Assembly: GCA_022823765.1 (NCBI GenBank)
Contig: JAJEHK010000206.1
Coordinates: forward strand, 3,984 to 67,983
From: Alphaproteobacteria bacterium
Lineage (GTDB): Bacteria > Pseudomonadota > Alphaproteobacteria > SP197
Reading direction: 5' to 3'
DNA: 64,000 bases
The first letter of the stretch is position 1; every line of letters begins with the position of its first letter. A program made the translations under genes and the position numbers. This document shows positions 7,522-39,333 of the stretch, one piece after another. Under the pieces are notes generated by a model that worked only from the letters and a program-made list of their open reading frames with translations, ran no database searches and was not told the origin of the DNA.

Positions 7522-8561
7522 GGCAGCCGTTCTCCGGTCGTGCTGTCGAAAAAGTGCAGCCGGTCCGGCCGGAGCGCGAGCGACAGCGTCTCGCCGGCAC
7601 GAACCGTACCGCGTATGTCACCGCTGGTCCGGACGGTCAGGTGCGCACCACGGGCATTGCTGAGATGAAGAAGCGCCTCATGGCCGAGGTCCTCGATCCT
7701 GTTGACGCGCGCCGCGCCGATCGGGACCCCGCCTTCGGTCAACCCGATCAGGAGGTGTTCGGGTCGGATTCCAAGCGTCGATCCGCGACCGTGGGCGACC
7801 GTCGCTGCGGCGTCGCCAAGGAGGTCCTTCGCGTCAAGCAGGTTCATGCGCGGACTGCCTATGAAACCTGCCACGAAGGTATTCGCGGGCTGTTCGTAGA
7901 GTTCGGTGGGGACACCGATCTGCATGATCCGGCCCTGGTTCATCACCGCGATCCGGTCACCCATCGTCATGGCCTCGACCTGGTCATGGGTCACGTAGAC
8001 CGTGGTCGTCGTCAGCTGGCGCTGCATCTCGGAGATCTCTCCACGCATCTGAACCCTGAGTTCCGCATCGAGATTGGACAGCGGTTCGTCGAAGAGGAAG
8101 GCATCCGGCCTGCGAATCATGGCACGTCCCAGGGCAACGCGCTGCGCCTGGCCACCCGAAAGCTGACGGGGCTTGCGGCCGAGAAGGTCGCCGAGACCCA
8201 GCGTGTCGGCGACGCGCACGACCTCGGACTTGACGGTGGCGGGATCGGTCTTCCTGATTCTCAGTCCGAAGGAGAGATTGTCGCGCACCGTCATGTTGGG
8301 GAACAGCGCGTAGGACTGGAACACCATCGAGATGTTGCGCTGGGCGGGCGACAGGTGGTTGGCGCGTTCGCCGCCGATCATCAGGTCGCCCGATGAGATG
8401 GTCTCGAGGCCCGCGATCATCCGAAGCGTGGTCGACTTGGCGCAACCCGAGGGACCCACCAGCACCATGAACTCTCCCTCGCGGACGTAGAGGTCGAGGC
8501 CGGAGATGACCTCGACATCGCCGTAGCTCTTCGCAACGTCCAGAAACCGGATGTCTCTCAT
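7518..8561 (-). CDS. ABC transporter ATP-binding protein, MalK/UgpC (carbohydrate) type
   Basis: GPSGCAKST (Walker A), LSGGQAQRVALGRA (signature), FLFDEPLSNLD (Walker B) and a C-terminal TOBE-like regulatory domain. Confidence 0.9.
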   Translation of the reverse strand: MRDIRFLDVAKSYGDVEVISGLDLYVREGEFMVLVGPSGCAKSTTLRMIAGLETISSGDLMIGGERANHLSPAQRNISMVFQSYALFPNMTVRDNLSFGLRIRKTDPATVKSEVVRVADTLGLGDLLGRKPRQLSGGQAQRVALGRAMIRRPDAFLFDEPLSNLDAELRVQMRGEISEMQRQLTTTTVYVTHDQVEAMTMGDRIAVMNQGRIMQIGVPTELYEQPANTFVAGFIGSPRMNLLDAKDLLGDAAATVAHGRGSTLGIRPEHLLIGLTEGGVPIGAARVNRIEDLGHEALLHLSNARGAHLTVRTSGDIRGTVRAGETLSLALRPDRLHFFDSTTGERLP

Positions 8562-9073
8562 CGCAATGCGTTCCAGTCCGGGGAAATCGAAACGATCGCG
8601 TCAATCTCGACGGTGATGTTGCCGGGCAGGGATCCCATGCCGACGGCCGTGCGCGCATGCCTGCCCCGTTCACCGAAGACGTCGCAGAACAGGTTGGAAC
8701 AACCGTCGATGACCGCCGGGTGATCAACGAAGTCGGGTCCGGCATTGACCATGCCGAAGACACGGCGGATCTGCGCGACATGCTCAAGCGAGCCAAGAAT
8801 TTCCCTTATTGCGGCGATCAGCACGAGACCGGTTCTTTGTGCGTGGTGGAACGCTTCATGGACAGGAACGTCAAGCCCGACCTTGCCGGTTGCCAGCCGG
8901 CCGCATTCCAGGACCGGCCCCTGGCCCGACAGATAGAGCGTCGTGCCGTCGATGGAGCCCAGGTCGAAGTTCCCGACAGGCGCGGGTGTCGGGGGAATGA
9001 CATGGCCGAGTTCGGCAAGCCGCCGGTCTGCGACACACTCCGGGCCAGCCGTTCCGCGTCGTTGTGTGTTCAT
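8558..9073 (-). CDS. RidA/YjgF/TdcF family protein (reactive enamine/imine deaminase)
   Basis: YjgF-type chorismate-mutase-like fold of about 170 aa. It is overlap-coupled to both neighbouring genes. Confidence 0.75.
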   Translation of the reverse strand: MNTQRRGTAGPECVADRRLAELGHVIPPTPAPVGNFDLGSIDGTTLYLSGQGPVLECGRLATGKVGLDVPVHEAFHHAQRTGLVLIAAIREILGSLEHVAQIRRVFGMVNAGPDFVDHPAVIDGCSNLFCDVFGERGRHARTAVGMGSLPGNITVEIDAIVSISPDWNALR

Positions 9074-10113
9074 GCGGCAAAGGCTCCTTCAATCCTGTTT
9101 CGGGCAGTGGTCAGGAACTCTCCCGTTACGTCGAAGTCGTTGGCGATACCGTAGGCGAGACCTTCACGCTCGACGAAGGCCCTCAATCCGCGCATGGCCT
9201 CGAAGACATCGTGCCACGTCACGTTCATGGCGGCGGGGCGAATGTCGAGGCCGAGACGGGTCACCGCACCGAGCAGTTCATCAACACGCTGACCATGCAT
9301 CATCGCGCCGAGCACGAGACCCAGACACACCGCCTGGCCATGCAGGAACGCTTTCCCTGTTCCCGCTTCGAGGGCATAGAAGATGTAGTGCTCGACTCCC
9401 TCGATGTGGCGCGGATTCCAGCCCGCACCGTGGTAGGAGGCACCACCCCATCTCAGGCCGTCGACCAGAATCCGGATGCCGCGCGGCGAAAGCGTCCTGA
9501 TTTCGTCAAGTTCGGCCAGCGCCGTCCCGGCCTTCGCCAGCGAGATGGCGGCGAGGCTCTCATCAAAGGGCCAGCGCGATTCGCACTTGCCCCGGGCCTC
9601 GGCGTGACGCCAGTCCATGACGCCGGTAACGAAGCACAGGACATCGCCCATGCCGGCGATGTTGAGTGCGCGGGGCGCGGATTCAATGATATCGAGGTCG
9701 ATGTAGACGGTTTGCGGGACGGCCCATCCGACATACCTGACGACGCTGTTTTCCCGGACCCCCGCACGATGTCCGAAGACGGCATCGACGGAAAGCGATG
9801 TCGGAAACTGGAAGAGCGGCAGGTTGAGACGCCAGGCGGCATACTTGGCGGCATCGATCGCCTGACCACCTCCCAGACCGACGATCGAGGCAACATTTCC
9901 GATCGTCTCGAGATCGGCTTCCAGCGCGTCACGTTCCATGGAACGCACCATGTAGGGCACGGCATCGTCCGGCAGGGAGTCGCGAAAGACGGGCCAGAGG
10001 TCTTCCATCGTCACGACCAGCATGGGCGGGCATACGAAGTTCGCCGCTTCGTGAAGAAGGTTGCGTCCGAAGACTGTCGTGAACTGCGGGATATCGGATT
10101 CCTTGAACGGCAT
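9070..10113 (-). CDS. DHQS/iron-ADH superfamily protein, glycerol-1-phosphate dehydrogenase-like; paralog B
   Basis: GLGGGQAIDAAKY motif. It is a paralog of the protein at 5129..6259. Confidence 0.75.
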   Translation of the reverse strand: MPFKESDIPQFTTVFGRNLLHEAANFVCPPMLVVTMEDLWPVFRDSLPDDAVPYMVRSMERDALEADLETIGNVASIVGLGGGQAIDAAKYAAWRLNLPLFQFPTSLSVDAVFGHRAGVRENSVVRYVGWAVPQTVYIDLDIIESAPRALNIAGMGDVLCFVTGVMDWRHAEARGKCESRWPFDESLAAISLAKAGTALAELDEIRTLSPRGIRILVDGLRWGGASYHGAGWNPRHIEGVEHYIFYALEAGTGKAFLHGQAVCLGLVLGAMMHGQRVDELLGAVTRLGLDIRPAAMNVTWHDVFEAMRGLRAFVEREGLAYGIANDFDVTGEFLTTARNRIEGAFAA

Positions 10114-10116
10114 GGT

Positions 10117-10974
10117 TCAGCCCTTGACTGCGCCAAGAGACAATCCCTTGACGATGTGTTTCTGTGCCGCGACAGCGAACAGCAGCATCGGCACGATGGC
10201 AACGATCGACGCGGCGGTCATCGCACCCCAGTCGAGCGACGCATAGCCGCGAAAGCTTGTTACCCCAAGCGTGACCGTCTGAGCCTTGGAGAACGTCAGG
10301 CCCAGTGCGATGGCAAGTTCGTTCCAGATCCAGATGGCGTTCAGGACGGCCGTGGCGGCCATCCCGGGCAGGGTACAGGGTACGTAGATCCTCGTCAGGA
10401 TTTGCCAGTTGGAGGCACCCTCGATGCGCGCGGCTTCGTCGATCGCCGGATTGATCTCGCGGAAGAACGAACTCAGGAGCCAGATCGACAGCGGCAGGAC
10501 GTGCACCTGGTACATGAGGGCAAGGCCGACATGGGTGTCATAGAGCCCTGTCCACTGGTAGAGCGAGAACATCGGAATGACGAAAAGAAACTCGGGGAGC
10601 ATGTAGGCAAGGATCAGCCAGACGCCGACGAGGTTCCTGCCCCTGATCTTCATCCGGACGATGGCATAGGCGGTCGGAATGGCGATGGCGAGCGACAGGG
10701 CCACGCCGATGGCCGTGATGATGACGGAGTTCAGGAACGTGTACTTGAACGTCTCATGGCTCCACAGCTTGAGATAGTTGGCCGTTGTCGGATCGAAGAT
10801 CCAGAGCGGAGGGCTGGCAAGGCCATCGCGCCTGGACTTGAGCGAGACCGTGAGCACCCAGTAGACCGGGAACAGGCTGAACAGGACCATGGCCCCGGTG
10901 AAGACATAGGCCCACGCCTGGGAAAGTCCTGTTCCCGGACCGCCGTGGAACTGCAGGACGGTGCGCATCTTCAT
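10117..10974 (-). CDS. ABC transporter permease, MalG/UgpE-like (CUT1 family)
   Basis: Six transmembrane helices and the EAA loop EAARIEGASNWQILTRIYVP. The track ORF 10117..11937 is an artificial fusion. The true start MKMRTV at 10974 overlaps the upstream permease stop (ATGA). Confidence 0.85.
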   Translation of the reverse strand: MKMRTVLQFHGGPGTGLSQAWAYVFTGAMVLFSLFPVYWVLTVSLKSRRDGLASPPLWIFDPTTANYLKLWSHETFKYTFLNSVIITAIGVALSLAIAIPTAYAIVRMKIRGRNLVGVWLILAYMLPEFLFVIPMFSLYQWTGLYDTHVGLALMYQVHVLPLSIWLLSSFFREINPAIDEAARIEGASNWQILTRIYVPCTLPGMAATAVLNAIWIWNELAIALGLTFSKAQTVTLGVTSFRGYASLDWGAMTAASIVAIVPMLLFAVAAQKHIVKGLSLGAVKG

Positions 10975-11852
10975 GCGTGGTGTTCGCCGCGCCGCTGCAA
11001 TGCCTGCAACGCCAGGGAAATGACGAGAATCAGGAGCGAGAACAGAATCATCGTCGCCATCGCCTTGCCGATCTGTTGATAGCTGTAGGCAGTGCGGTAG
11101 ACGAAGGTCTGCACGACTTCGGTTGCCAGGGCCGGTCCGCCACCGGTCGTGCCGAAGACGATGTCGAAGACCTTCAGGGTGTCGATGGCCCGGATGATGA
11201 TGACGGTGATCAGCAGCGAGCGCAGCATCGGCAATTTGATGGACCAGAAAATGGTGAACTCGCTCGCACCCTCGACACGGGCTGCCTCGACCGGTTCCGC
11301 CGGCAGGCTTCGCAATCCGGCAAGCATGATGATGAAGACGAAAGCCGTCTGCCACCAGACATCGACCGCGACGATGGAAGCCATCGCTGTTTCGACAGCG
11401 CCGTAGAAGGCCGAGGGACCAAGGCCGAACACACCGATCAGGTGGTTGATGATGCCGAGGAAGGGATCGAACATGACCTTTGACATCAGCGCAACGACGA
11501 TGCCGGAAACCATGAGCGGCAACATGATCACCGCGCGAATGAGATCCGTCCGGATGGCCAGCTTGTCGACTTGCACCGCGAGGTAGAACCCCAGCGCGAC
11601 CTCGATGGCCGTCGCCCACACGGCGAACACCACCGTGTTCTTCATGACGCTCCAGAACTCGGCGCCGGAGAGAAGGCTGGCATAGTTCGCCCAGCCGACA
11701 AACTCGAACTGGTTGCCCCAGTTCCAGTTGGTGAATGACACCGCCAGTCCGAACCCGACGGGATAGACCGACGTGAACGCGAGAATCAGGAGGCAGGGCA
11801 GAACGAACCACAGGGCCGAGGCCCTGCCGAGGAACCTGAGCGCAGACGTCAT
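10971..11852 (-). CDS. ABC transporter permease, MalF/UgpA-like (CUT1 family)
   Basis: EAA loop EAARVEGASEFTIFW. The start MTSALRF at 11852 is chosen over the long N-terminal extension given in the track. Confidence 0.85.
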   Translation of the reverse strand: MTSALRFLGRASALWFVLPCLLILAFTSVYPVGFGLAVSFTNWNWGNQFEFVGWANYASLLSGAEFWSVMKNTVVFAVWATAIEVALGFYLAVQVDKLAIRTDLIRAVIMLPLMVSGIVVALMSKVMFDPFLGIINHLIGVFGLGPSAFYGAVETAMASIVAVDVWWQTAFVFIIMLAGLRSLPAEPVEAARVEGASEFTIFWSIKLPMLRSLLITVIIIRAIDTLKVFDIVFGTTGGGPALATEVVQTFVYRTAYSYQQIGKAMATMILFSLLILVISLALQALQRRGEHHA

Positions 11853-11937
11853 GGCGCTCTCCGGACCGGAAAGCAGGATGAACTCTCCGGAAAGATGCCC
11901 CGGATGGCAGGAAATTGCCATCCGGGGCGAGGCACAT

Positions 11938-13305
11938 TCAGTTGGCGAGCATTGTCTCGAAGTCGGTCTGGGCCGCAGCGCCGGCCTCGGCAGGGTCTGC
12001 ACCGCCGTAGATATCCTGAATCACGTCAACGATGCGCAGCGCGAACTCGCTCCAGCCGGCACGTTGCACGACCGAGGTCTGCGAGTTGGGCATGGCGGCT
12101 GCCACGGCATCGACATAGGACTGCGGGAAGCTCGCCGCGTACTCGGGATCCTGCCACGTCGACAGACGCGGTGCGCCGCCGTGCAGCTTGCCGATGGTGG
12201 TCGCGTTGGCCGTGTTCGACATGTACTGGATGAAGAGCCAACCGGCCTCGGGTGAGGCGGCGTTCTGCGGGATTCCGAAACCCCACTGCCAGTGGGCCGT
12301 GTAGGGCTCGCCCTCGGCGTTGTCGACGGGGATGACCGAGTAGCCGATCTTGCCGGCAACGAGGCTCTCGTCCGGGTTCTCGAAGCCGGGAGCGAAGAGG
12401 CTTGCGTCGATGAAGAACGCCGCGCCACCCGCCATGAAGAACTGCGAGGCATCGGGCCAGTCCATGGCCTGGATGTTGACGGGACCGGCCTTCATCAGTT
12501 CCGCATAGTTCGCGAGGCCCCGCACGATATCGGGATCGTTCATCTTCGGCTTCGACCAGTCACCGTCGAACCAGACGTTTTGCGGAGCGGAGCGGTCTGC
12601 CGCACCGACCGAATTGTTCACGAAGCCGGTGACCGTGTCGATCAGCGTGTCCGACCGGATGCCACGCAGGACGGCACCCGCGATGGCGCCCCCGCTTTCC
12701 TCCTTCACCTCGCGCGCCGCGGCGATCAGTTCTGCCATCGTTGTCGGCATCTTGCCGTCAAGATACTGGTTCACGTGATCCATGTTGGCGAACAGGATGT
12801 AGGTCTCGAACGAAGCCGGGATACCGTGGTACTCCCAACGGCCGTCGATGTCGTACGTGGTTGCATCAAGGAAGCCTGCCGGGATGTCGTCCAGATTGTA
12901 GTCGCCAGCCGTGAGATCAGGGCTGTCGATGAAGTCCTGCAAGGAATGGACGAGGCCGTTGGTGTGCTGGGTGTAGGCCGTGGAATCCATCGGCAGGAAG
13001 TAGACGTCCATCTGCGAGTTGCCGCCCGAGCCGCGCAGCGCCACTTCCATGCGGTCGAAGTAGAGATCTTCGGCCATGGTCTGCAGGGTGACGTCGATCC
13101 CGGTGTCGGCCTCGAACTGGTCGAGCACCACACGCACGCCGTCGGTGACGGGATGTTCCGGCATCATGACGGTGATCGACTCTCCCGAGAGCTGGTCCCA
13201 CGAAAAGTCGGCCGTAGCGACCGTGGCGCTGACCGCAAGGGCTACCGACGATGCGGTGACCAGCTTGGCCGCTCTGACAAGGGCTCCTCGCCGCGATGTG
13301 TTCAT
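11938..13305 (-). CDS. ABC transporter substrate-binding protein (family 1, carbohydrate type) with a twin-arginine-like signal peptide
   Basis: Start MNTSRRGALVRAAKLVTASSVALA at 13305, preceded by a GGAGG RBS with a 5-nt spacer. SBP_bac_1-like fold. Confidence 0.85.
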   Translation of the reverse strand: MNTSRRGALVRAAKLVTASSVALAVSATVATADFSWDQLSGESITVMMPEHPVTDGVRVVLDQFEADTGIDVTLQTMAEDLYFDRMEVALRGSGGNSQMDVYFLPMDSTAYTQHTNGLVHSLQDFIDSPDLTAGDYNLDDIPAGFLDATTYDIDGRWEYHGIPASFETYILFANMDHVNQYLDGKMPTTMAELIAAAREVKEESGGAIAGAVLRGIRSDTLIDTVTGFVNNSVGAADRSAPQNVWFDGDWSKPKMNDPDIVRGLANYAELMKAGPVNIQAMDWPDASQFFMAGGAAFFIDASLFAPGFENPDESLVAGKIGYSVIPVDNAEGEPYTAHWQWGFGIPQNAASPEAGWLFIQYMSNTANATTIGKLHGGAPRLSTWQDPEYAASFPQSYVDAVAAAMPNSQTSVVQRAGWSEFALRIVDVIQDIYGGADPAEAGAAAQTDFETMLAN

Positions 13306-13507
13306 CGTTTCCTCCGTATGTTCTGACAGCCTGCTGATCAGGCATTGGTCGACCGGATTTTCCAGGAACGGAAATCGGTTGACCAATTGGCGCAGATGCA
13401 CAACCATTTGTCAAACCCCGTGTTCATCGCCACGTGAGCATGACGCTGCCATTTCCGGAGAGCGTTGAGGTTTGCGCGACCGGTGGACCCATTCGAAAGG
13501 AAACGTC

Positions 13508-17603: not shown

Positions 17604-18671
17604 CTATTCCGCTGCCTTCATGAAGGCGCGTGAATTCGGGAAGGCCGGCATCACTTCGTCGATGAACAGGCGCAACGAGGACTTCTGCAGTTCGAACGTC
17701 GGGCCGGTCACGCGATAGAGGAAATTGTCAACACCAAGGGCCTCGTAGCGGCGCAGCTTGGCGATCACCTCGTCGGGCGTGCCGAAGACGAGGTTGGTGC
17801 GCAGCATCTGGGGATCGTATTCGGCGACATTGTCGAGCGAGGCAAGATCGACCGCCTCGACAAAGCCATTCTTCACCTCGCCCAGTTGCTTGAACAGGTT
17901 CTCGAACTGCACACCGCTCCTTTGCACCGCCTCGACAAAGGGCTGCCAGCCGTGTTCGGAGTCCTGGTAAACGGCGGCATGGCGCATGGTCAGGAAGCGC
18001 GGCCTCGGGATCTCCGGAACCCGCGCCAGCGCATCCTCGAACTGTTGCCTGTACTTCTCGACCTCGCTGAAGGGACGGGTCAGCGCCCAGGACATGATGT
18101 TGCACCCCTGGGTGAGGGCCCAGTCGTAGGTCGAGGGATGGCGCGCCGCGACCCACAGGGGGGGATGGGGCTTCTGCAACGGCTTGGGACAGGCGGTCGC
18201 TGAAGGGAAGGACCAGAATTCGCCGCAGTGCTCATGATCGCCGGCCCACAGGCCCTTGAGCACCGGCAGCATCTCCTGCATGTAGGCGACCCCCTTGTGC
18301 TGGTCCATGCCTCCCATCATGCGGTCGAATTCACGCTGATAGGCGCCGCGACCGATACCGAACTCCACCCGTCCACCCGACATGAGATCGAGCAGGCCGA
18401 CTTCTCCGGCCACCTTGATAGGGTGCCAGTAGGGAGCCTGGACCACGGCGATTCCGAGGCGGATCTGGTCGGTGTTGGCGCCGAACCATGCGAGCAGCTG
18501 GAAGGGGTTGGGCGCAATCGTCATCTCGATCGCATGGTGTTCGGCAGCCCAGACGATCTCGAATCCCCCCGACTCGGCCATCTGCACCATGTCCATGGCG
18601 TGGCGGGCGACATCCCGCATGTCGATCGACGGGTTGTCGCGGGCAAGATCGATCGAAAGACTGAATTTCAT
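17604..18671 (-). CDS. LLM-class flavin-dependent oxidoreductase (luciferase-like monooxygenase)
   Basis: Luciferase-like TIM-barrel sequence features across 355 aa. Confidence 0.75.
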   Translation of the reverse strand: MKFSLSIDLARDNPSIDMRDVARHAMDMVQMAESGGFEIVWAAEHHAIEMTIAPNPFQLLAWFGANTDQIRLGIAVVQAPYWHPIKVAGEVGLLDLMSGGRVEFGIGRGAYQREFDRMMGGMDQHKGVAYMQEMLPVLKGLWAGDHEHCGEFWSFPSATACPKPLQKPHPPLWVAARHPSTYDWALTQGCNIMSWALTRPFSEVEKYRQQFEDALARVPEIPRPRFLTMRHAAVYQDSEHGWQPFVEAVQRSGVQFENLFKQLGEVKNGFVEAVDLASLDNVAEYDPQMLRTNLVFGTPDEVIAKLRRYEALGVDNFLYRVTGPTFELQKSSLRLFIDEVMPAFPNSRAFMKAAE

Positions 18672-18769
18672 GACGCCTACCCCTTGTCGTTGACACCGGA
18701 TTCTACGCGAGGATCGATCCCGGTGATATCGCGATGGCGAGGGACGCCCCGGCGCCCCTTGCCCGGACC

Positions 18770-19654
18770 TCAGGCCGCAGCGAGCCCGAGTTTCTGGCGC
18801 GCTTCGGCCGCGCCGACGACCCGCCCGCCCATCATCTCGATGATCCCGGCCGCCTTCTCGACCAGCTGGCCGTTGGTCGCCAGCACCCCGCGCTTCAGAT
18901 AGAGGTTGTCCTCGAGGCCGACCCGGACATTGCCACCCAGCAGCATGGCCTGGGCAACCATGGGCATCTGCATCCGGCTGATGCCGAAGCCCGCCCAGTT
19001 GGCTCCCTGGGGCAGGCAGTCCGCCATCGTCATCATGGAGCGCGTGTCCGCCCCCGCACCCCAGGGAATGCCGAGGCAGACCTGGAAGAGGGGCGGGTCC
19101 TCGATGAGTCCCTCGTCATACATGGCGCATGCGAGACGAACCTGGCCGAGATCGAACACCTCGATCTCCGGCTTGACCCCCATCTCGCGGATGTTCGACG
19201 CCATGGTGCGGCACCAGGACGCCGGGTTGACGTAGGTCTCGTTGCCGTCACCGAAGTTGATGGTGCCGCAATCGAGAGAGCAGATCTCCGGGCGCAGACG
19301 ATCGACATGGCGCAGCCGTTCGAGGGGGCCGACGATGTCACTTCCAGGACCGGGGCGGGACGGATTGTCGTCATCAAGGTTGAAGTCGCCGCCCATGCCC
19401 GCTGTCAGGTTGAGAATCACGTCGACGCCATCCTTGCGGACCAGGTTGACGGTCTCCTCGAACAGGTCGGGATCGCGCGAGCCCTTGCCGGTCTCGGGAT
19501 CACGCACGTGGATATGGGTGACCGCGGCGCCCGCATGGGCCGCCTCGATCGCCGCATCGGCGATCTGGCGCGGGGTCACCGGAACCTTGTCGCTCCGCGA
19601 AACCGTATCCCCGGCGCCGGTGACGGCGCAGGTGATGATGACGTCCGTGTTCAT
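18770..19654 (-). CDS. BKACE family enzyme (3-keto-5-aminohexanoate cleavage / dehydrocarnitine cleavage enzyme-like, DUF849)
   Basis: [18 protein letters not shown]-terminus and an overall TIM barrel typical of the BKACE family. Confidence 0.8.
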
Positions 19655-19689
19655 GAATGTTCCTCCAGGTCAATGAATGGGCTGAATGG

Positions 19690-20643
19690 TCAGAAACCGG
19701 CCTCGCGGCGGGCCTTCAGAACTCCGACAAGTCCCTCGTTCATCTTCGCCGACAGCGTCCGGAAGTCCTCTCCCGGGGCGGCCGCATCACAGCCGTCGAT
19801 GAGGCGGCGAGCAAGATCATCGGTGAGTTCAGGCGCATCAAGGCGACTCCACGGAAACTTCAGTGCCGGCCCGAACTGCTCCAGGCAATAGGCCATGCCA
19901 CCTTCGCCGCCGCCGACATGGAACACCATGCACGGTCCCATGAGGGCCCAGCGCGGTCCGGGACCATTGGTCACCGCCGTGTCGATCTGCTCCACCGTCG
20001 CCTCTCCGGCCGCGATCATGTGCAGGGCCTCGCGCCAGATCGCTTCCTGCAGCCGCGTGGCGATGAATCCGGGAACCTCGCGATCCATGACAAGGGGGGC
20101 CTTGCCGACGTGGCGAAAGAACTCTGCCGTCCAGGCCACCGCGTCCGGATCCGTCCGGCGGCCAGCGACGATCTCGACCAGAGGCATGAGATAGGGCGGA
20201 TTGAAGGGGTGGCCGGTGACCGTGCGCTCCGGCGACGGACAGAGCGCCTGGATGTCGCTCATGGAAAGACCCGAGGTCGAGGAACACAGGACGACGTCCG
20301 GTGGCGCCAGACGGCCGAGATCGGCGTAGACTGCCTGCTTCACCTCGAGGATTTCCGGAACGCTCTCCTGCACGAAGTCGGCCCCGGCTACTGCTGCCGC
20401 CAGATCGGTGGTGACATGCAACTGCCCGGGCGATGCGCCCTCTGTTGTTCCGAGCTGTTCCAGGGAGCTCCAGGCCGTCGCCACCAGGGAGCGGAGTTTC
20501 TCCTCTTCCTCCGCCTCGAGAACCCATGACGTCACGTCATGGCCCGTCGCCAGGAAGAACGCCGCCCACCCGGCGCCGATCGGCCCGGCGCCGAGGCAGG
20601 TGACGGCCGAGACGTCCTGTGGCTGTGGCCGGCCCATCGTCAT
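19690..20643 (-). CDS. 3-hydroxyacyl-CoA dehydrogenase family protein, L-carnitine dehydrogenase (LcdH)-like
   Basis: Rossmann motif CLGAGPIGAGWAAFF plus a C-terminal 3HCDH domain. BKACE partners are typically this type of dehydrogenase. Confidence 0.75.
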   Translation of the reverse strand: MTMGRPQPQDVSAVTCLGAGPIGAGWAAFFLATGHDVTSWVLEAEEEEKLRSLVATAWSSLEQLGTTEGASPGQLHVTTDLAAAVAGADFVQESVPEILEVKQAVYADLGRLAPPDVVLCSSTSGLSMSDIQALCPSPERTVTGHPFNPPYLMPLVEIVAGRRTDPDAVAWTAEFFRHVGKAPLVMDREVPGFIATRLQEAIWREALHMIAAGEATVEQIDTAVTNGPGPRWALMGPCMVFHVGGGEGGMAYCLEQFGPALKFPWSRLDAPELTDDLARRLIDGCDAAAPGEDFRTLSAKMNEGLVGVLKARREAGF

Positions 20644-21440
20644 CTGCCCAGGAAAACCGGCTGACGCCGTTCAACGAAGGCGCTGATGCCTTCCTGAGCG
20701 TCATCGGAGGCCAGCATCCGCCGGTAGAGGGGGAGGTCGGCCGAGCGCATGGTCCTGAAGGCGCCCTCGACGGTCTCGCCCTCGATGGCCCGAAGCACTT
20801 CCTTGACCGCGCCCAGTGCCAGTGGCGCGCCGGTGGCGAGGCGTTCGCCCCAGTGGCGGGCCTTCGCCATGAGCTGGGCGGCCGGGACGACAGCGTTCAC
20901 CAGTCCCAGCTGCCGTGCCTCGTCGGCCTTCATGCGGCGGCCGAGCAGCAGCATTTCCATGGCGACATTGGTTGGCAGGCGCCGTGGCAGGCGTTGCAGG
21001 GCTCCGGCATCCGGGACAATGCCAAGGGGGAGTTCGGGCAGGGCAAACTCCACGTGGTCGGCAGCTATGACGAGGTCGCAGGCGAGCGCAATCTCGAATC
21101 CGCCGCCGATGGCATGGCCGTTGAGGGCGGCGATCACCGGTTTGTCGAGATTCCACATCTCCGTGATGCCGGCGAATCCGCCAAGCGAGGCGTCTTCCGT
21201 TTCCCACCAGTTGTCCAACTGCTGATCGCCGCTCTCGAGAGCCTTGAGGTCCCAGCCAGCCGAAAACAGGCGGTCTCCGGACGCCGTGAGAATCGCCGCC
21301 CTGAGGTCGGGATCATCACGAAAGGCGACGAAGGCCTCCCCCATGAGGCGGCTCGTGGCGCGGTCGATGGCGTTGACCTTCGGCCGGTCGATCGTGATTT
21401 CCAGCAGCCTTCCGCGCCGCTCGACACCAATTCCTGCCAT
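20640..21440 (-). CDS. Enoyl-CoA hydratase/isomerase (crotonase) family protein
   Basis: Crotonase fold with the oxyanion region ALNGHAIGGGFEIALACD. Confidence 0.85.
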   Translation of the reverse strand: MAGIGVERRGRLLEITIDRPKVNAIDRATSRLMGEAFVAFRDDPDLRAAILTASGDRLFSAGWDLKALESGDQQLDNWWETEDASLGGFAGITEMWNLDKPVIAALNGHAIGGGFEIALACDLVIAADHVEFALPELPLGIVPDAGALQRLPRRLPTNVAMEMLLLGRRMKADEARQLGLVNAVVPAAQLMAKARHWGERLATGAPLALGAVKEVLRAIEGETVEGAFRTMRSADLPLYRRMLASDDAQEGISAFVERRQPVFLGR

Positions 21441-22183
21441 CAGATCAGCCGGGCCGGCGTATAGGAGGCACGGGCGGTGCCGATGGCCTCGGCAAGATCG
21501 AGGCGGCCCAGGAAAAGCGCCCTGCCGATGATGCAGCCGCCGATGTTCGGCAGGTACTTCAGCATCGAGACATCGTCGATGCTGGTGACCGTACCGCTCG
21601 AGATCACCGGCACATCGAGAACCTCACCCATGCGCATGGTCCGGGCAAGACTGTAGTCCCTTGGTTCCTTGTCGCGGTCGAGATCGACAAAGACGATTTC
21701 CGAGATACCGGCCTCCACCAGGCTCTTCGCCATTTCCGTCGCCGGAAAGGCGGTTTCCTCTCGCCACCCCTCGATGACCACCATGCCGTTGCGCGCCGCC
21801 ACGGTGGCAATGATACGGTCGGGGTAGGCCGTGCAGGCGTCGGTGACGAGGTGCCGGTCCTTGACCGCCGCCGTCCCCAGGCCCACGCGCCAGGCGCCAT
21901 GCTCGAACCACCAGTGCACGGACCCGATGGAGCGGATGCCGCCTGCAACCTGGACCGGAATGGCAACGCTGTCGATGATCCGGCAGATCTGCTCGGCGTT
22001 GTGTCGCCCGCCCTGGAGTGTCCCGTCGACATCCACCACGTGGAGACAGTCCGCTCCGGCGTCGGCGAACTTGCGGGCGGCATCCTCCGGGGAGAGATCG
22101 AAGGGTTCGGGAGTTTCGTGGCGGCCATCCACGCGATTGACCGCCTTGCCTCCCATGATTTCGATTGTGGGGTAGATTTTCAT
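21440..22183 (-). CDS. HisA/HisF-family (ProFAR isomerase-like) TIM-barrel protein, outside any his operon context
   Basis: MKIYPTIEIMGGKAV, VQVAGGIRS, SSGTVTSIDDV and GCIIGRALF align to the HisA motifs IPALDL.DG, VQVGGGVRS, SGGIG..DDV and GVIVGRAL. Confidence 0.7.
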   Translation of the reverse strand: MKIYPTIEIMGGKAVNRVDGRHETPEPFDLSPEDAARKFADAGADCLHVVDVDGTLQGGRHNAEQICRIIDSVAIPVQVAGGIRSIGSVHWWFEHGAWRVGLGTAAVKDRHLVTDACTAYPDRIIATVAARNGMVVIEGWREETAFPATEMAKSLVEAGISEIVFVDLDRDKEPRDYSLARTMRMGEVLDVPVISSGTVTSIDDVSMLKYLPNIGGCIIGRALFLGRLDLAEAIGTARASYTPARLI

Positions 22184-22241
22184 GGTCTCGAACCGCATCC
22201 GGCTGGCGCCATCATAGGCGAGAATCGCCTCCCGGCGCGAC

Positions 22242-22643
22242 TCAGGATGTCTCGTCGAGTGGCCTGAACGCGATGACCTCGATCTCGACGCGAACATCGA
22301 CCAGAAACTCGGAGATGAGCGCAGAGCGGGCCGGCGGTTCCTCGGGAAAGTACTCCGCATAGACGGCGTTGAATCCGGGAAAGTCTGCGCGATCCGACAG
22401 CCACACCATGGCCTTTACCACGTCGCCAAGAGTGCAGCCCGCTTCCGTCAGGGTCTCGCGGATCGCCTCGATGACGACCCGGGTCTGATCCTCGATGGTG
22501 CCATGGGTCATCGGCTTTCCGTCCTCAAGGGGGACCTGGCCGGTCAGGAACACGAAGTCCCCGGCCCGGATGGCGCGGGAAAGCGACAGGACCCGCCCGC
22601 CGATCGAGAGCGGCCCGCCGATCACCTGTTTCGTCGTCGTCAT
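22242..22643 (-). CDS. RidA/YjgF family protein
   Basis: Start MTTTKQVIGG, a typical RidA of about 133 aa. Confidence 0.75.
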   Translation of the reverse strand: MTTTKQVIGGPLSIGGRVLSLSRAIRAGDFVFLTGQVPLEDGKPMTHGTIEDQTRVVIEAIRETLTEAGCTLGDVVKAMVWLSDRADFPGFNAVYAEYFPEEPPARSALISEFLVDVRVEIEVIAFRPLDETS

Positions 22644-22746
22644 CTTCACAGGTCTCCCCTGGTGTGGTGCGTGACACTGTGGGGAGTTGCGTTCCATGTG
22701 CAAGCCTGTGTTGAATGACCGGCGTCAAGGAAGGGGACCGGGGACC

Positions 22747-24231
22747 ATGGAAGAACTCAGGCACTACCGCATGCTGATCGACGGCGCATGGGTCGATTCC
22801 GGGGACGGCGGCACCTTCGACAGCATCAATCCGGCGACCGGCAAGGCCTGGGCCACGGTCGCCGCCGCCACCGCGGACGATGTCGACCGGGCCGTAAGGG
22901 CGGCACATCGCGCCTTCACCAGTGGTCCCTGGGCAACCATGCTGCCGACCCAGCGGGGCCGCCTGTTGCGCAATCTTGCCGGCCTGCTGGCCGAGCGTTC
23001 GGAGGACCTGGGCCGGACCGAGTGCATCGACACCGGAAAGATGTTCAAGGAGACGCGCTGGCAGGCGCGCTACATCGCCGAGTTCTTTCATTTCTACGCG
23101 GGCCTTGCCGACAAGGTAACCGGCGAGACCCTGCCCATCGACCGCCATGACATGCTGACCATCACCACGCGCGAACCCCTGGGCGTCGTGGCCGCCGTCG
23201 TGCCGTGGAACAGCCAGCTCTTTCTCGTCGCGGTGAAGATCGGACCGGCGCTTGCAGCCGGCAACACCGTTGTCCTGAAGGCCAGCGAACACGCCTCGGC
23301 CGCCATGCTGGAGTTTGCCGAACTCGCCATGGAGGCCGGATTCCCGCCCGGCGTGGTCAACGTCGTCACCGGCCATGGCGAACCGTGCGGACGCACTCTG
23401 ACCACCCACCCCCTGGTGGCGCGCATCAGTTTCACGGGCGGACCGGCGACGGCCCGTCATGTCGTCAGGAATTCCGCCGACAATTTCGCCGAAGTCTCCC
23501 TCGAGCTGGGAGGCAAGTCTCCCGTCGTCGTGTTCGGCGATGCCGACATCGAGAGTGCTGTCAACGGTTCCCTTGCCGGCATCTTCGGCGCCAGCGGACA
23601 GAGCTGCGTCGCCGGCAGCCGGATCTATCTCCACGAGTCGATTCACGATGCCTTCATCGACCGCCTGGTGGAACGGACCGGTGACATCCGCATCGGCGAC
23701 CCCCTGGCCGAGGAGACCCAGATGGGGCCGCTCTGCACCATGGCCCAGCTCGAGGGGTGCGAGCGCCAGGTGGCCCGCGCCGTGGAGGAAGGGGGCGCCC
23801 TGCTCACCGGCGGCAAGCGTCCGGACCATCCCGATACCGGCTGGTACTTCGAACCGACCATCGTGTCCTGCCCGGACCAGTCCATGGAGATTGTCGATAC
23901 CGAGATGTTCGGGCCGGTGCTCTCGGTGCTGCGCTTCAGCGAGGAAGACGAGGTGGTCGCCATGGCAAACGACACGCGCTACGGGCTGGCGGCCGGAGTC
24001 TTCACGCGGGACCTTGCCCGTGCCTTGCGTGTCCAGAAACGGATTCGCGCCGGAATCGTGTGGGTCAACACCTACCGCGTGGTGTCGCCCATCGCCGAAT
24101 TCGGCGGCTTCAAGGACTCAGGCTACGGGCGCGAATCGGGCGCCCAGGCAATCTACGACTATACCCGGCCCAAGACCGTGTGGATCAACACGTCTGATGA
24201 GCCGATGGACAACCCCTTCATCATGCGATAG
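22747..24231 (+). CDS. NAD(P)-dependent aldehyde dehydrogenase
   Basis: ALDH motifs ELGGKSP and FGASGQSCVAGSR (catalytic Cys) over 494 aa. Confidence 0.9.
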   Translation: MEELRHYRMLIDGAWVDSGDGGTFDSINPATGKAWATVAAATADDVDRAVRAAHRAFTSGPWATMLPTQRGRLLRNLAGLLAERSEDLGRTECIDTGKMFKETRWQARYIAEFFHFYAGLADKVTGETLPIDRHDMLTITTREPLGVVAAVVPWNSQLFLVAVKIGPALAAGNTVVLKASEHASAAMLEFAELAMEAGFPPGVVNVVTGHGEPCGRTLTTHPLVARISFTGGPATARHVVRNSADNFAEVSLELGGKSPVVVFGDADIESAVNGSLAGIFGASGQSCVAGSRIYLHESIHDAFIDRLVERTGDIRIGDPLAEETQMGPLCTMAQLEGCERQVARAVEEGGALLTGGKRPDHPDTGWYFEPTIVSCPDQSMEIVDTEMFGPVLSVLRFSEEDEVVAMANDTRYGLAAGVFTRDLARALRVQKRIRAGIVWVNTYRVVSPIAEFGGFKDSGYGRESGAQAIYDYTRPKTVWINTSDEPMDNPFIMR

Positions 24232-24242
24232 GCGCGCGAACC

Positions 24243-25694
24243 ATGGCCATCGTCATCACCAGCCGCAACGACCTCACTCTGGAAAACGCCCGGCGTGTGG
24301 CCTGGGAACGGGAGGGCGTCGAGATCGGCGCCGAGGCCCTGGCCGCCATGGAAGCAGGCCGCGAGAGGCTGATGCGCATCCTCGAGCATGACCCCGACGT
24401 CACCATCTACGGGGTCACGACCGGTGCCGGCCAGATGGCCAGGCAGAAGATCAGGCCGGAGGATCGCAGCAGCCACGCCCGCATGTCACCGACCGGCGCT
24501 GCCGCATCGTGGGGCGATCCCCTGCCCGACCGGGTGGTGCGTCTCATCATCCTCGCGCGCCTCACCAATTTCATAGAGGGTCACGCGGCCGTCTCCCCCG
24601 AGATTGCCCAGGGCGTTGCGTCAATGCTCTCGCAGGAAAGCGTGCCCGTGATCCCGGCGCGGGGCCAGGGAGGCGCCGGCGAGATTCTCTCGCTCAGCCA
24701 TCTTTTCGCACCACTCGTCCAATCGGTCGGGGCCGATGTCAAGGATGTCATGTGCCTCGTCAATGGGTCGCCGTCGGCAACCGGCCTCGTCACCGATGCC
24801 GCACTGACGGCCGAAGCCCGCCTCGATCTCGCAGCCCGGGTCATCGCACTGTCGTTCGAGGCGTTCAACGCGCCCCTCGGCCACCTCGCCGGAGCTCTGG
24901 AGGACTACTGGAACAATCCCTGCGATGCCTGGGCCCTGAGGACCATGCGGACACTCATCGACGGTGGCCATGGTGGCAGCCGCCGACCCTATCAGGCCCC
25001 GGTGAGCTACCGTATCGCGCCACGCATGCTCGGTCAGGCCCGGCGTGCCGTCGACCTGGCACGTGACGTGGCCGGTGAATCTCTCCGGGCCGTGACCGAC
25101 AATCCGGTGTGGATCGATGAACGCGACGAGGACCATCCCTTCGGACAGTTCGTGTCGACCGGCGGATACCACAATCCCCACGCGGTTCTCGCCATGGATG
25201 CCTTGACGGCGACATGCGCCAATCTCTGCGTCCTTGCCGAACGTCACGGCGCCAAGTTGCTTGACGGTCATGTCTCCCTGCTGCCCGACCAGCTGATCGA
25301 CCCCGACCGGGAAGGCGGCATCCGCCGGGGATACATGGGATGCCTGCCCATGGCGCAGACCGGCTATGAGGAAGAGGCCCGATATCATGCCCAGGCCACC
25401 CTGCTTCCGGGCAGCGAGTCGGGAGGATTCGGACAGAATGACGTGGCGAGTCCGGTGTTTCTCGCCTGGACCAAGCTGCAGCGCGCCAGTGAATGCCTCG
25501 ATCTCGCGCTCGCCAGTCTCGCGCCCATTGCCGTGAGGGCCCTGGACGTTACCGGACGCCGGGTCCCCGGACCGCTGAGCGGGATTGAAGAAACCGTGCG
25601 CGACGCGTTCCCGAACCTGGAGGAACGGCGCGCCTTCGGCCCCCTGGTGGCCGACGTCGCCACGGCGTTCCGCACCACCATTCATCCTTCCTGA
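24243..25694 (+). CDS. Aromatic amino acid lyase (HAL/PAL) family protein with a non-canonical MIO region (Gly-Ala-Gly in place of Ala-Ser-Gly)
   Basis: Overall HAL fold. The segment QGGAGEILSLSHLFAPL aligns to the HAL motif GSVGASGDLAPLAHMA, so the MIO-forming Ser is replaced by Ala. Confidence 0.65.
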   Translation: MAIVITSRNDLTLENARRVAWEREGVEIGAEALAAMEAGRERLMRILEHDPDVTIYGVTTGAGQMARQKIRPEDRSSHARMSPTGAAASWGDPLPDRVVRLIILARLTNFIEGHAAVSPEIAQGVASMLSQESVPVIPARGQGGAGEILSLSHLFAPLVQSVGADVKDVMCLVNGSPSATGLVTDAALTAEARLDLAARVIALSFEAFNAPLGHLAGALEDYWNNPCDAWALRTMRTLIDGGHGGSRRPYQAPVSYRIAPRMLGQARRAVDLARDVAGESLRAVTDNPVWIDERDEDHPFGQFVSTGGYHNPHAVLAMDALTATCANLCVLAERHGAKLLDGHVSLLPDQLIDPDREGGIRRGYMGCLPMAQTGYEEEARYHAQATLLPGSESGGFGQNDVASPVFLAWTKLQRASECLDLALASLAPIAVRALDVTGRRVPGPLSGIEETVRDAFPNLEERRAFGPLVADVATAFRTTIHPS

Positions 25695-37630: not shown

Positions 37631-38824
37631 TCAGACTTGTGCGTTGACCTTGCCCCGCGGGATGAGTTTCTCGGGATCGTAGAAAGGAAGGTCCAGGGTT
37701 TCGCCCGGCACCCGGTCGTCACCGCAGGTCACCTGGCGACCGATCCAGTCCCCGGCCTGCTCGAAGAGCGCGTAGGCGATATGGTGCCCCAGGTAGGGCG
37801 AGAAGGCCGTTGCGGTCAACCGGCCGGCCGGTCGACCGTCGATCTCGAACGTCATGCCGGCATGAATCTTGCCGTGGGCCTTCAGGCCCACCAGCCGGGG
37901 CCGCCGGTCGGCCGCCAGCAGGGCTTCACGGCCTATGAACCCTTCCTTTTCCAGATGGATGAACTGGCCCAGACCCGCCGCGTAGGGCGTCATGGCAGGC
38001 GACATGTCGGTGCCGTTGTTGAGGATGCCAGCCTCGATGCGACGGACATTCATGCACGCCATGGCGGCGAAGCGCATGCCGTGTCTGCCGCCCACGCCCG
38101 TCAGGTGGTTCCACAACGCACCGTGGTCGGCGTCCTCGGGCACGTAGATCTCGAACCCCACCTCGCTCGTCCAGCCGGTGCGGGTCACAAGCAGGGGCTC
38201 GCCCGCCATCGTGACCCGGGCCACGCCGAAATAGGGAAAGGGATCGGGCGCATCGCCGTCGCACAGGGCTGCCAGCACATCGAGGGAGCGGGGTCCCTGA
38301 ACCTGCAGCACCCAGTCCTTCGTGTCGACGATCTCGACGTCGAATCCCGGCTGGTGTGCCTTGAGCCAGGCGAAGATCTCGCCGTCCGCCAGCACGTAGC
38401 GGAAGTGGTCCTCGGCCAGGCGCACGAGCACGCCGTCCATGAGGATGCCGCCATCGGCGTAGCACATGAGGCCATAACAGCAACGCCCGACCTTCAGCGG
38501 CGCGATGCGGCGCACCATCAGGCGGTCGAGAAAGCGGGCGGCGTCCGGACCGACGAACTCGATGGCATGTTCGGGCACGTCGAACAACGTGGCCTGACGG
38601 CGCAGGTGCCAGTATTCGGCTTCCACATCCTCGTTCAGGTATCCCGGCGACATGTGACCGCTGTAGACTGAAAAGGAGGCATTGGGTCCGATGCGATCCG
38701 CGTAGAACGGGACGAAGGGCGAGGCCTGCAGCCCGCTGAACTCCCCGGGCCACACAGGCAGGCTGCGGCCACGGTGGCGCTGCGGTCGCATTGCCCAGCC
38801 ATCGGCGGAGGTGTTGTCACTCAT
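37631..38824 (-). CDS. Aminomethyltransferase (GcvT) family protein, DmdA / tetrahydrofolate-dependent demethylase-like
   Basis: GcvT N- and C-domain folds. The start MSDNTSADGW at 38824 is preceded by GGGAAG. Confidence 0.75.
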   Translation of the reverse strand: MSDNTSADGWAMRPQRHRGRSLPVWPGEFSGLQASPFVPFYADRIGPNASFSVYSGHMSPGYLNEDVEAEYWHLRRQATLFDVPEHAIEFVGPDAARFLDRLMVRRIAPLKVGRCCYGLMCYADGGILMDGVLVRLAEDHFRYVLADGEIFAWLKAHQPGFDVEIVDTKDWVLQVQGPRSLDVLAALCDGDAPDPFPYFGVARVTMAGEPLLVTRTGWTSEVGFEIYVPEDADHGALWNHLTGVGGRHGMRFAAMACMNVRRIEAGILNNGTDMSPAMTPYAAGLGQFIHLEKEGFIGREALLAADRRPRLVGLKAHGKIHAGMTFEIDGRPAGRLTATAFSPYLGHHIAYALFEQAGDWIGRQVTCGDDRVPGETLDLPFYDPEKLIPRGKVNAQV

Positions 38825-39333
38825 GGTCTTCCCTTGCTCCCGGATGCGTGCCGGCGCTCGTCTTGAACACCGATCAGGACAGTGATTGATACTCATGGGC
38901 GTACCGGGGTCAATCTCTGAAGCCGACCGTCGTTCATCCCGGCGAGACCGGTCCCGTGGCGACGGGTGCCAGGTTCAGCCGATCGCGAGACCGCAACAGC
39001 CATTTCCAACCGGACGCAGCAGGGGTCGGCCGGATGGCGTGTGGTCGGTGTCACGATGACGCTGAAGCGCTGATTGGACTTGTGAGGGGTCAGACATGAT
39101 GACCGATACAGCAAGAGAGCAAGGACACTCACCGGCAGAAGATCGGAATGGCGGCGGCTGCAGGTACGTTGCCATGGTCCGGTCTCCCGAGGAGCTGCCG
39201 ACCAGGCGGGCATGGAAGTCCTGCACTGCATCCGGTGGAGAATGCCGCTGCGACCGTGAGCCTCCTCGCCCGTCGAATGCCGGGGCGCGATTCGATCCGT
39301 CAAGATGAACCGCACGCCGCAAATTCGCGGTCA

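Follow-up and report, generated by a model that had tools for sequence, protein, structure and literature searches.

Background

The 4-methylidene-imidazol-5-one (MIO) cofactor, which forms at an Ala-Ser-Gly triad, has long been regarded as the hallmark of the HAL/PAL superfamily, and among characterised enzymes we found exceptions only in a few lyases that act on betaines derived from histidine. Here we describe a protein of the same family, PF00221, which carries Gly-Ala-Gly at the position of the triad and belongs to a clade whose active site differs from that of these exceptions. It is encoded on the plus strand at positions 24243 to 25694 of a 64,000-nucleotide stretch of DNA from an Alphaproteobacteria bacterium (GenBank assembly GCA_022823765.1, contig JAJEHK010000206.1, positions 3,984 to 67,983); the whole stretch is called the window, and the protein the query.

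The characterised MIO-deficient members of PF00221 are all trimethylammonia-lyases, that is ergothionases and histidine-betaine lyases, and include Td_ETL from T. denticola (PDB entry 6s7j), Swoo_3913, SO_3057 and SO_3299 (bioRxiv 10.1101/2025.08.13.670108, 10.64898/2026.04.22.720169). According to the same two preprints MIO is dispensable in these enzymes because trimethylamine is a far better leaving group than ammonia, and in the Shewanella lyases Gln, Arg and Asn bind the carboxylate, His and Glu bind the imidazole nitrogens, and Tyr takes the beta-proton. In a genuine PAL, replacement of the MIO serine by alanine leads to loss of both MIO and activity (PMC3903478).

It is probable, judging from conservation and the residues retained, that the query is a working MIO-independent enzyme. 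With moderate confidence we read it, by analogy, as a functional lyase of the HAL/PAL/TAM fold whose substrate would be a carboxylate with no imidazole side chain, bearing at the alpha carbon a group that by its nature leaves easily. A more specific reading, as a trimethylammonia-lyase, is tentative and draws on the same analogy. The clade is distinct, large, uncharacterised and MIO-less; the concept of cofactor loss itself has a precedent.

The gene and the register of the MIO site

The gene and the residues at the MIO site are located as follows.

24243 to 25694, plus strand: MIO-less PF00221 (HAL/PAL/TAM-fold) protein, full-length open reading frame (ORF) of 483 amino acids plus stop, translation uninterrupted
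24672 to 24680, plus strand: Gly144-Ala145-Gly146, codons GGC GCC GGC, in the register of the HAL triad Ala142-Ser143-Gly144

The sole Pfam family match of the 483-residue protein is PF00221 (Lyase_aromatic; 219.4 bits against a cutoff of 27.3, E=1e-64), and the sequence at window positions 24654-24716 is PARGQGGAGEILSLSHLFAPL. The original prediction was that Gly-Ala-Gly stands where HAL has its triad, so that the MIO serine is an alanine and the canonical MIO is precluded, in a protein of full length. Two alignments agree on this. In a MAFFT alignment A142-S143-G144-D145 of the P. putida HAL lies over G144-A145-G146-E147 of the query with no register shift, and a phmmer search against PDB pairs 'GSLG[X=MIO]DLAPLSH' of the tyrosine aminomutase SgTAM with 'GQGGAGEILSLSH' of the query. 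The P. putida HAL sequence used as reference was checked and is essentially identical to PDB entry 1gkm. No alternative Ala/Thr/Cys-Ser-Gly triad was found across the query protein, and the 483 uninterrupted codons correspond to the usual HAL length.

The only other x-Ser-Gly occurrences, E392-S393-G394 and L445-S446-G447, were rejected as a triad, as they lie off the MIO site and their serines are unconserved in the wider clade. Directly after the MIO helix the query carries a deletion of about 23 residues relative to HAL.

Conservation and the wider clade

More than 100 full-length orthologs with 59-96% identity were found by a word-indexed search of 5.8 billion proteins, and 35 of these were aligned for residue counts. 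GQGGAGEILSLSHLF is essentially invariant in this alignment. The motif GQGGAGEIL is present in 34 of the 35 orthologs, the remaining one having GPG, which means that position 145 is Ala in 34 sequences and Pro in one; therefore the substitution is no chance or sequencing oddity. The lyase ORF is intact in 82 of 82 related loci, and the Nei-Gojobori ratio of nonsynonymous to synonymous substitutions (dN/dS) against nine orthologs is 0.08-0.17. Because the motif is invariant, the ORFs are intact and dN/dS is low, the loss of the triad is a family trait and not decay. A search for orthologs with the same substitution and for their gene neighbourhoods had been proposed with the original prediction; the motif was recovered in this way, and the search for a shared neighbour over 46 non-redundant loci gave none (see Genomic context).

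An exhaustive phmmer search of 1.84 billion cluster representatives yielded 175 sequences (50%-identity clusters) at E<=1e-30 and 1,219 at E<=1e-10. Additionally, when one genome per species was scanned, at least 599 pattern matches came up, at least 535 of them confirmed relatives. Among the matches listed, the relatives are mostly from Alphaproteobacteria (Rhodospirillales, Hyphomicrobiales, Dongiaceae, Paracoccaceae), with many sponge or marine metagenome-assembled genomes (MAGs), and a few are from Binatia, Thermodesulfobacteriota and Ectothiorhodospiraceae MAGs. Residues were counted in the query together with 69 representatives at 26-48% identity (70 sequences, all full-length), and the positions of the MIO site read as follows.

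HAL Ser143 position: Ala 30, Pro 22, Ser 11, Gly 3, Thr 2, Val 1
HAL Ala142 position: mostly Gly
HAL Gly144 position: Gly 66
HAL Asp145 position: Glu 59, Asp 8

Sequences bearing Ser, Ala and Pro are interleaved in a rough neighbour-joining tree rooted on HAL. A methylidene imidazolone is unattainable from Pro. The position of Ser143 appears to behave as a small exchangeable loop residue rather than as a cofactor precursor. On these alignments the clade is large, old and mostly alphaproteobacterial, and the MIO serine does not seem to be required in it. Several conserved features are specific to the clade and have no HAL counterpart: SWGD (Trp90), WNN...D.W (223-230), RRPYQAPVS (Arg247-Arg248), GYEEEAR (375-380) and LLPGSESGGFGQND. 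Full-text literature searches found no paper on this clade.

Active-site residues

The catalytic residues of HAL were located in the query and counted in the 35 orthologs and in the 70 clade sequences.

24408 to 24410, plus strand: Tyr56, equivalent to HAL Tyr53 (beta-proton base), in the inner loop IYGVTTG; 35/35 orthologs, 61/70 clade
24498 to 24500, plus strand: Ala86, at the position of HAL His83 (imidazole binder); orthologs A17/I13/P4/V1, clade variable
24762 to 24764, plus strand: Asn174, equivalent to HAL Asn195 (NGSP motif); 35/35 orthologs, 61/70 clade
24993 to 25013, plus strand: Q251-A-P-V254-S-Y-R257, covering the positions of HAL Gln277, Tyr280 and Arg283
Within it, plus strand: Gln251, equivalent to HAL Gln277 (carboxylate binding); 35/35 orthologs, 64/70 clade
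Within it, plus strand: Val254, replacing HAL Tyr280; Val in 35/35 orthologs and 59/70 clade
Within it, plus strand: Arg257, equivalent to HAL Arg283 (carboxylate binding); 35/35 orthologs, 66/70 clade
25101 to 25103, plus strand: Asn287, equivalent to HAL Asn313 (DNP motif); 35/35 orthologs, 64/70 clade
25437 to 25439, plus strand: Asn399, at the position of HAL Glu414 (imidazole binder), the Glu being lost; N in 35/35 orthologs, N/D/S/T in the clade

The Tyr base and the Arg, Gln and Asn residues, whose inspection had been suggested together with the original prediction, are kept, and the equivalent of Tyr280 is lost. In HAL numbering Tyr280 is the partner of MIO and of the amino group. On this pattern the query has kept what is needed to hold an alpha-substituted carboxylate and to take off its beta-proton, and has lost what activates an amino leaving group and recognises histidine. 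Val at the Tyr280 position is also found in clade members that bear Ser at the MIO position. The tyrosine is likewise lost in an unrelated MIO-less HAL homologue from Burkholderia, and therefore a joint loss of Tyr280 and MIO is suggested.

The Burkholderia protein is encoded on a plasmid of Burkholderia pyrrocinia (NZ_CP150851.1, our locus L084, 2995-4488; WP_342312516.1), between an upstream amine ABC transporter and a downstream hutC, and is annotated as hutH. It carries no Ala-Ser-Gly: where HAL has GSVGASGDLAPLAH it reads GSVG-Y-LTHMAH, three residues shorter, so that its loop is shortened; the loop of the query is of HAL length. Its Tyr280 equivalent is Leu, and the equivalents of His83 and Glu414 are retained. 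The top PDB matches are true HALs (7tqr, 4e-85), with ergothionase weaker (5e-50). It is probably another MIO-less lyase mis-annotated as HutH, and its substrate is possibly a histidine-derived betaine. Lacking Ala-Ser-Gly, it was rejected as a reference for the canonical HutH alignment, for which the P. putida HAL was used.

Fold and comparison with described enzymes

A structure prediction, also among the steps proposed at the outset, was made with AlphaFold2 from the ortholog alignment and gave an all-helical fold of the HAL/PAL type (mean pLDDT 79, pTM 0.85). The segments of low confidence are 54-68, which is the Tyr56 loop, 359-361, and 390-400, which is the GQND loop. We take segments 54-68 and 390-400 to match the mobile lid loops of HAL/PAL structures, and their low pLDDT in the model is consistent with flexible lid loops of that fold. 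A Foldseek search of the model against PDB returned solely HAL, TAL, TAM, PAM, PAL and ergothionase structures with probability 1.00. The query-based TM-score (TMq) was 0.79-0.84 to the P. putida HAL, TAL, TAM and ergothionase entries, among them 3kdz, 2o6y, 1gk3 and 6s7j.

In sequence searches all eight NCBIfam equivalog models scored far under their cutoffs. The best was HutH with 156-163 bits against 524-539; the TAM model TIGR03832 gave 97 bits against 501, and PAL, PAM and TAL were lower still. With phmmer against PDB the E-values were 4e-23 for tyrosine aminomutase, about 1e-20 to 1e-22 for HALs and 1.8e-9 for ergothionase 6s7j. By the triad, Tyr280 and the equivalog scores, the query is placed outside the MIO-dependent lyases and aminomutases (HAL, PAL, TAL, TAM, PAM).

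HutH from P. putida (1b8f/1gkm) shares with the query the fold (TMq 0.83-0.84 to 1b8f, 1eb4 and other P. putida HAL entries), the register of the MIO-site loop and the equivalents of Tyr53, Asn195, Gln277, Arg283 and Asn313. The query differs from it by Ser143 to Ala, Tyr280 to Val, His83 to Ala and Glu414 to Asn, and also by context, as HutH belongs to a hut operon whereas no hutU, hutI or hutC is near the query gene. SgTAM (2ohy/2rjr) is the best PDB sequence match (4e-23) and has a Foldseek TMq of 0.81-0.82; unlike the query, which has neither the triad nor an equivalent of Tyr308/Tyr280, SgTAM is MIO-dependent.

The ergothionase from T. denticola (6s7j) resembles the query in having the PF00221 fold (TMq 0.82, target-based TMt 0.80) and no MIO, with a Tyr base and carboxylate binders that are conserved according to the preprints cited above. 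However, the two are only 18% identical in the structural alignment. Ergothionase has imidazole binders and a Lys384 for the thiolate, whereas the query has Ala86 and Asn399 at the His and Glu positions, and the query helix taken to correspond to the Lys384 region reads GYEEEAR. No ergothioneine-catabolic genes were identified in the window.

The Shewanella histidine-betaine and N(pi)-methyl-histidine-betaine lyases (Swoo_3913, SO_3299), together with SO_3057, are likewise MIO-deficient PF00221 proteins, with a trimethylammonium leaving group. These enzymes are periplasmic, lie beside flavocytochrome c reductases of the urocanate type, and bind imidazole through His117 and Glu467. The query has no such reductase as a neighbour and the His and Glu equivalents are absent. 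Its N-terminus aligns with the start of the cytoplasmic HAL, and we read the protein as cytoplasmic and without a signal peptide. The query would resemble the ergothionases and histidine-betaine lyases in its action, by analogy, but it is not placed as a member of either group.

Genomic context

Upstream of the lyase gene lies the following gene.

22687 to 24231, plus strand: aldehyde dehydrogenase (ALDH), PF00171 with E=5e-170

The ALDH gene ends 11 nucleotides before the ATG of the lyase gene and the two are probably co-transcribed. The best NCBIfam match of the ALDH is the model for betaine aldehyde dehydrogenase (BADH), with 513 bits under a cutoff of 668.6. Downstream of the lyase gene in the window lies htpG.

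Conservation of context was surveyed in 82 loci, thinned to 46 non-redundant loci at 85% identity. ORFs were clustered by all-vs-all BLAST, 127 upstream and 132 downstream ORFs were scanned with Pfam, and tightly linked neighbours were scanned separately. The neighbour counts rest on Pfam matches; gene calls based on G+C content at third codon positions (GC3) were set aside, an antisense ORF having been called in locus L001. The ALDH gene adjoins the lyase gene in 12 of the 82 loci (L001 included), all at least 79% identical. Since the link is absent across the 46 non-redundant loci it carries little functional weight, and it was rejected as functional evidence because it is confined to the lineage of the window at 79% identity or more. 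The catabolic cluster downstream of an ALDH that was originally described is therefore real locally, with its 11-nucleotide spacer, but does not extend beyond these 12 close relatives.

The commonest neighbour families reached at most six matches (CMD 6, SDR 5, Peptidase_A24 5, ECH 4, TauE 4), and with no family above six an assignment of the substrate from context was abandoned. Tightly linked partners on the same strand are LLM, CMD, an ornithine-cyclodeaminase-like protein, acyl-CoA dehydrogenase, DAO, ferredoxin reductase, ECH, TauE, TauD and FGGY kinase. In one locus with a 70% identical ortholog (L002), the lyase gene is located behind a helix-turn-helix regulator and a PF12974 binding protein.

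A linkage to UbiD and UbiX was found in a subclade 42-48% identical to the query. In Rhizobium tropici CIAT 899 and R. jaguaris the lyase gene is divergent from UbiD and UbiX, and in a third locus (L088, 8001-12611) it overlaps the start of the orthologous UbiD, which is followed by a 2-oxoglutarate-Fe(II) oxygenase and a methyltransferase. As decarboxylases, UbiD enzymes act on acids that are unsaturated or aromatic, and the linkage therefore fits an enoate as product of the lyase; it is a suggestive hint for this subclade only. A tblastn search for UbiD and UbiX in the other 82 loci and in the window found none. The loci of this UbiD-linked subclade are L085 (6530-8776, R. tropici CIAT 899 plasmid pRtrCIAT899c), L083 and L088; downstream in R. 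tropici are an LLM monooxygenase, two SfnB/DszC-like proteins of the acyl-CoA dehydrogenase fold and a MetN-type ABC ATPase.

Other genes of the window were noted as well. A divergent run on the minus strand (17604-22703), upstream of the ALDH-lyase pair, encodes RidA, a HisA-like barrel, a CaiD-like enoyl-CoA hydratase, a 3HCDH protein resembling L-carnitine dehydrogenase, BKACE and a luciferase-like oxidoreductase, and has the look of a set for the catabolism of carnitine or beta-keto acids. For a run of the carnitine type, genes for a HisA-like protein and RidA are unusual company. With 185 bits the HisA-like barrel stays below the NCBIfam cutoff of 243. As listed, its ORF is extended by about 58 amino acids at the N-terminus, so its start is probably mis-set. 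Further away on the minus strand, at 37631-38896 and 7518-13407, are a GcvT-like aminomethyltransferase and an ABC uptake system (SBP_bac_1, permease, TOBE-domain ATPase) by a GntR/FCD regulator.

Proposed mechanism

In the mechanism that we infer, the substrate would be a carboxylic acid with a substituent at the alpha carbon, and Arg257, Gln251 and Asn287 would bind its carboxylate, close to Asn174. The mobile lid loop would bring in Tyr56 to abstract the beta-proton, and the alpha-substituent, being already a good leaving group, would depart without covalent activation to give an alpha,beta-unsaturated (enoic) acid. The side chain of the substrate is presumably not an imidazole, because the equivalents of His83 and Glu414 are absent. 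By analogy the leaving group would most plausibly be a quaternary (trimethyl)ammonium, which is favoured because the only characterised MIO-less PF00221 enzymes use that leaving group. The original suggestion of a functional MIO-independent member of the fold gains support from the invariant motif, the dN/dS values, the predicted fold and the retained Tyr, Asn, Gln, Arg and Asn.

Several observations weigh against this interpretation. The query is nearer to TAM and HAL than to ergothionase in the phmmer search (4e-23 for TAM and 9e-21 for HAL against 1.8e-9), so the analogy is not one based on homology. Ser occupies the MIO position in 11 of the 70 clade sequences; two distant representatives, P0134 and P0136, read a true Ala-Ser-Gly and the nine others x-Ser-Gly. 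Over the 46 non-redundant loci, neither BLAST nor Pfam gave a conserved gene partner, and no betaine transporter or trimethylamine-handling gene is consistently near. Furthermore, the UbiD link is restricted to a distant subclade.

Alternative explanations

An MIO-independent lyase could also do without a betaine. By an aspartase-like E1cB elimination, ammonia or a non-nitrogen group such as sulfite would be expelled from an acidic or sulfonated acid in which a second anionic group already makes the beta-proton more acidic. Aspartase and fumarase, which work without a cofactor, have a fold related to that of HAL, and the clade has charged features of its own in the invariant Arg247-Arg248 before Gln251 (RRPYQAPVS) and the GYEEEAR helix. 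There are also weak neighbours of a sulfur type: TauE in 4 and TauD in 2 of the 132 downstream ORFs, two of each directly after the lyase gene, and the LLM/SfnB-like/MetN-type cluster that adjoins it in R. tropici. Each of these neighbour signals is, however, present in at most 4 of the 46 non-redundant loci, and such a reaction is without precedent inside PF00221, so we consider it unlikely.

A non-catalytic pseudo-enzyme that has kept the fold for ligand binding or regulation and lost the chemistry would account for the missing cofactor residues and Tyr280, and also for the unconserved pathway context. We regard it as improbable. A binding or regulatory derivative, which the original prediction had offered as its alternative, is made less likely by the conservation of the catalytic residues, as Tyr56 and the four carboxylate and active-site residues are invariant in the orthologs and kept in 61-66 of the 70 clade sequences. 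No DNA-binding or signalling domain is fused to the protein, which consists of PF00221 alone at the usual HAL length, and the other MIO-less homologues are bona fide enzymes.

If instead Gly-Ala-Gly cyclised and underwent an O2-dependent dehydrogenation, as in GFP, an MIO-like electrophile could arise and the protein would be a conventional ammonia-lyase or aminomutase. The length of the loop and the match of Gly146-Glu147 to HAL Gly144-Asp145 agree with this, as do the clade sequences with Ser, including the two with Ala-Ser-Gly. It is nevertheless very improbable: Pro stands at the position in 22 of 70 sequences with the residue types interleaved on the tree, Ser-bearing members too have Val in place of Tyr280 (P0134 and P0136 included), and Ser-to-Ala mutants of true lyases have neither MIO nor activity (PMC3903478).

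A decaying pseudogene, the refuting case named with the original prediction and one to which the missing Ser only would point, can practically be dismissed given the uninterrupted ORF in the query and in all 82 related loci, the dN/dS of 0.08-0.17, and a GC3 of 0.78 for the lyase ORF, near that of neighbouring genes.

Implications for annotation and metabolism

The automatic annotation of this clade as 'aromatic amino acid lyase' or 'histidine ammonia-lyase' is probably wrong, and identification of the substrate would correct hundreds of annotations as well as show the HAL scaffold working without MIO. The clade may, though we put this forward as a speculation more doubtful than likely, represent a new reaction class, a cofactor-free lyase for a non-histidine substrate that in some lineages feeds enoic acids to UbiD-type decarboxylases. 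If true, this could be a hitherto unknown route to trimethylamine from an abundant alpha-betaine of plants, sponges or the sea (e.g. betaines of tryptophan, tyrosine or other amino acids) or, in an alternative form, the elimination of a non-nitrogen leaving group. Trimethylamine, or some other small leaving group, might then have a so far unrecognised source in Alphaproteobacteria of marine, sponge-associated and rhizosphere habitats. Rhizobium tropici CIAT 899, whose ortholog lies at NC_020062.1:1814806-1816236, offers a cultured entry point to the clade.

Minor observations

Long ORFs that run antisense or out of frame across the lyase gene, e.g. 24621-25685 on the minus strand and 24509-25066 on the plus strand, seem 'conserved' in 55-75 of the related loci (ORF clusters 1-5). 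This conservation is a by-product of high G+C content and of conservation in the true frame, and no evidence of overlapping genes.

One ortholog, 54% identical to the query, is encoded on a contig of 1.2 Mb (L069, WNWL01000001.1) whose title names Oceanobacillus sp. HTM 045. A 21-kb stretch of this contig has 69% G+C, which is implausible for Bacillaceae, and the assembly is probably wrongly labelled or contaminated.

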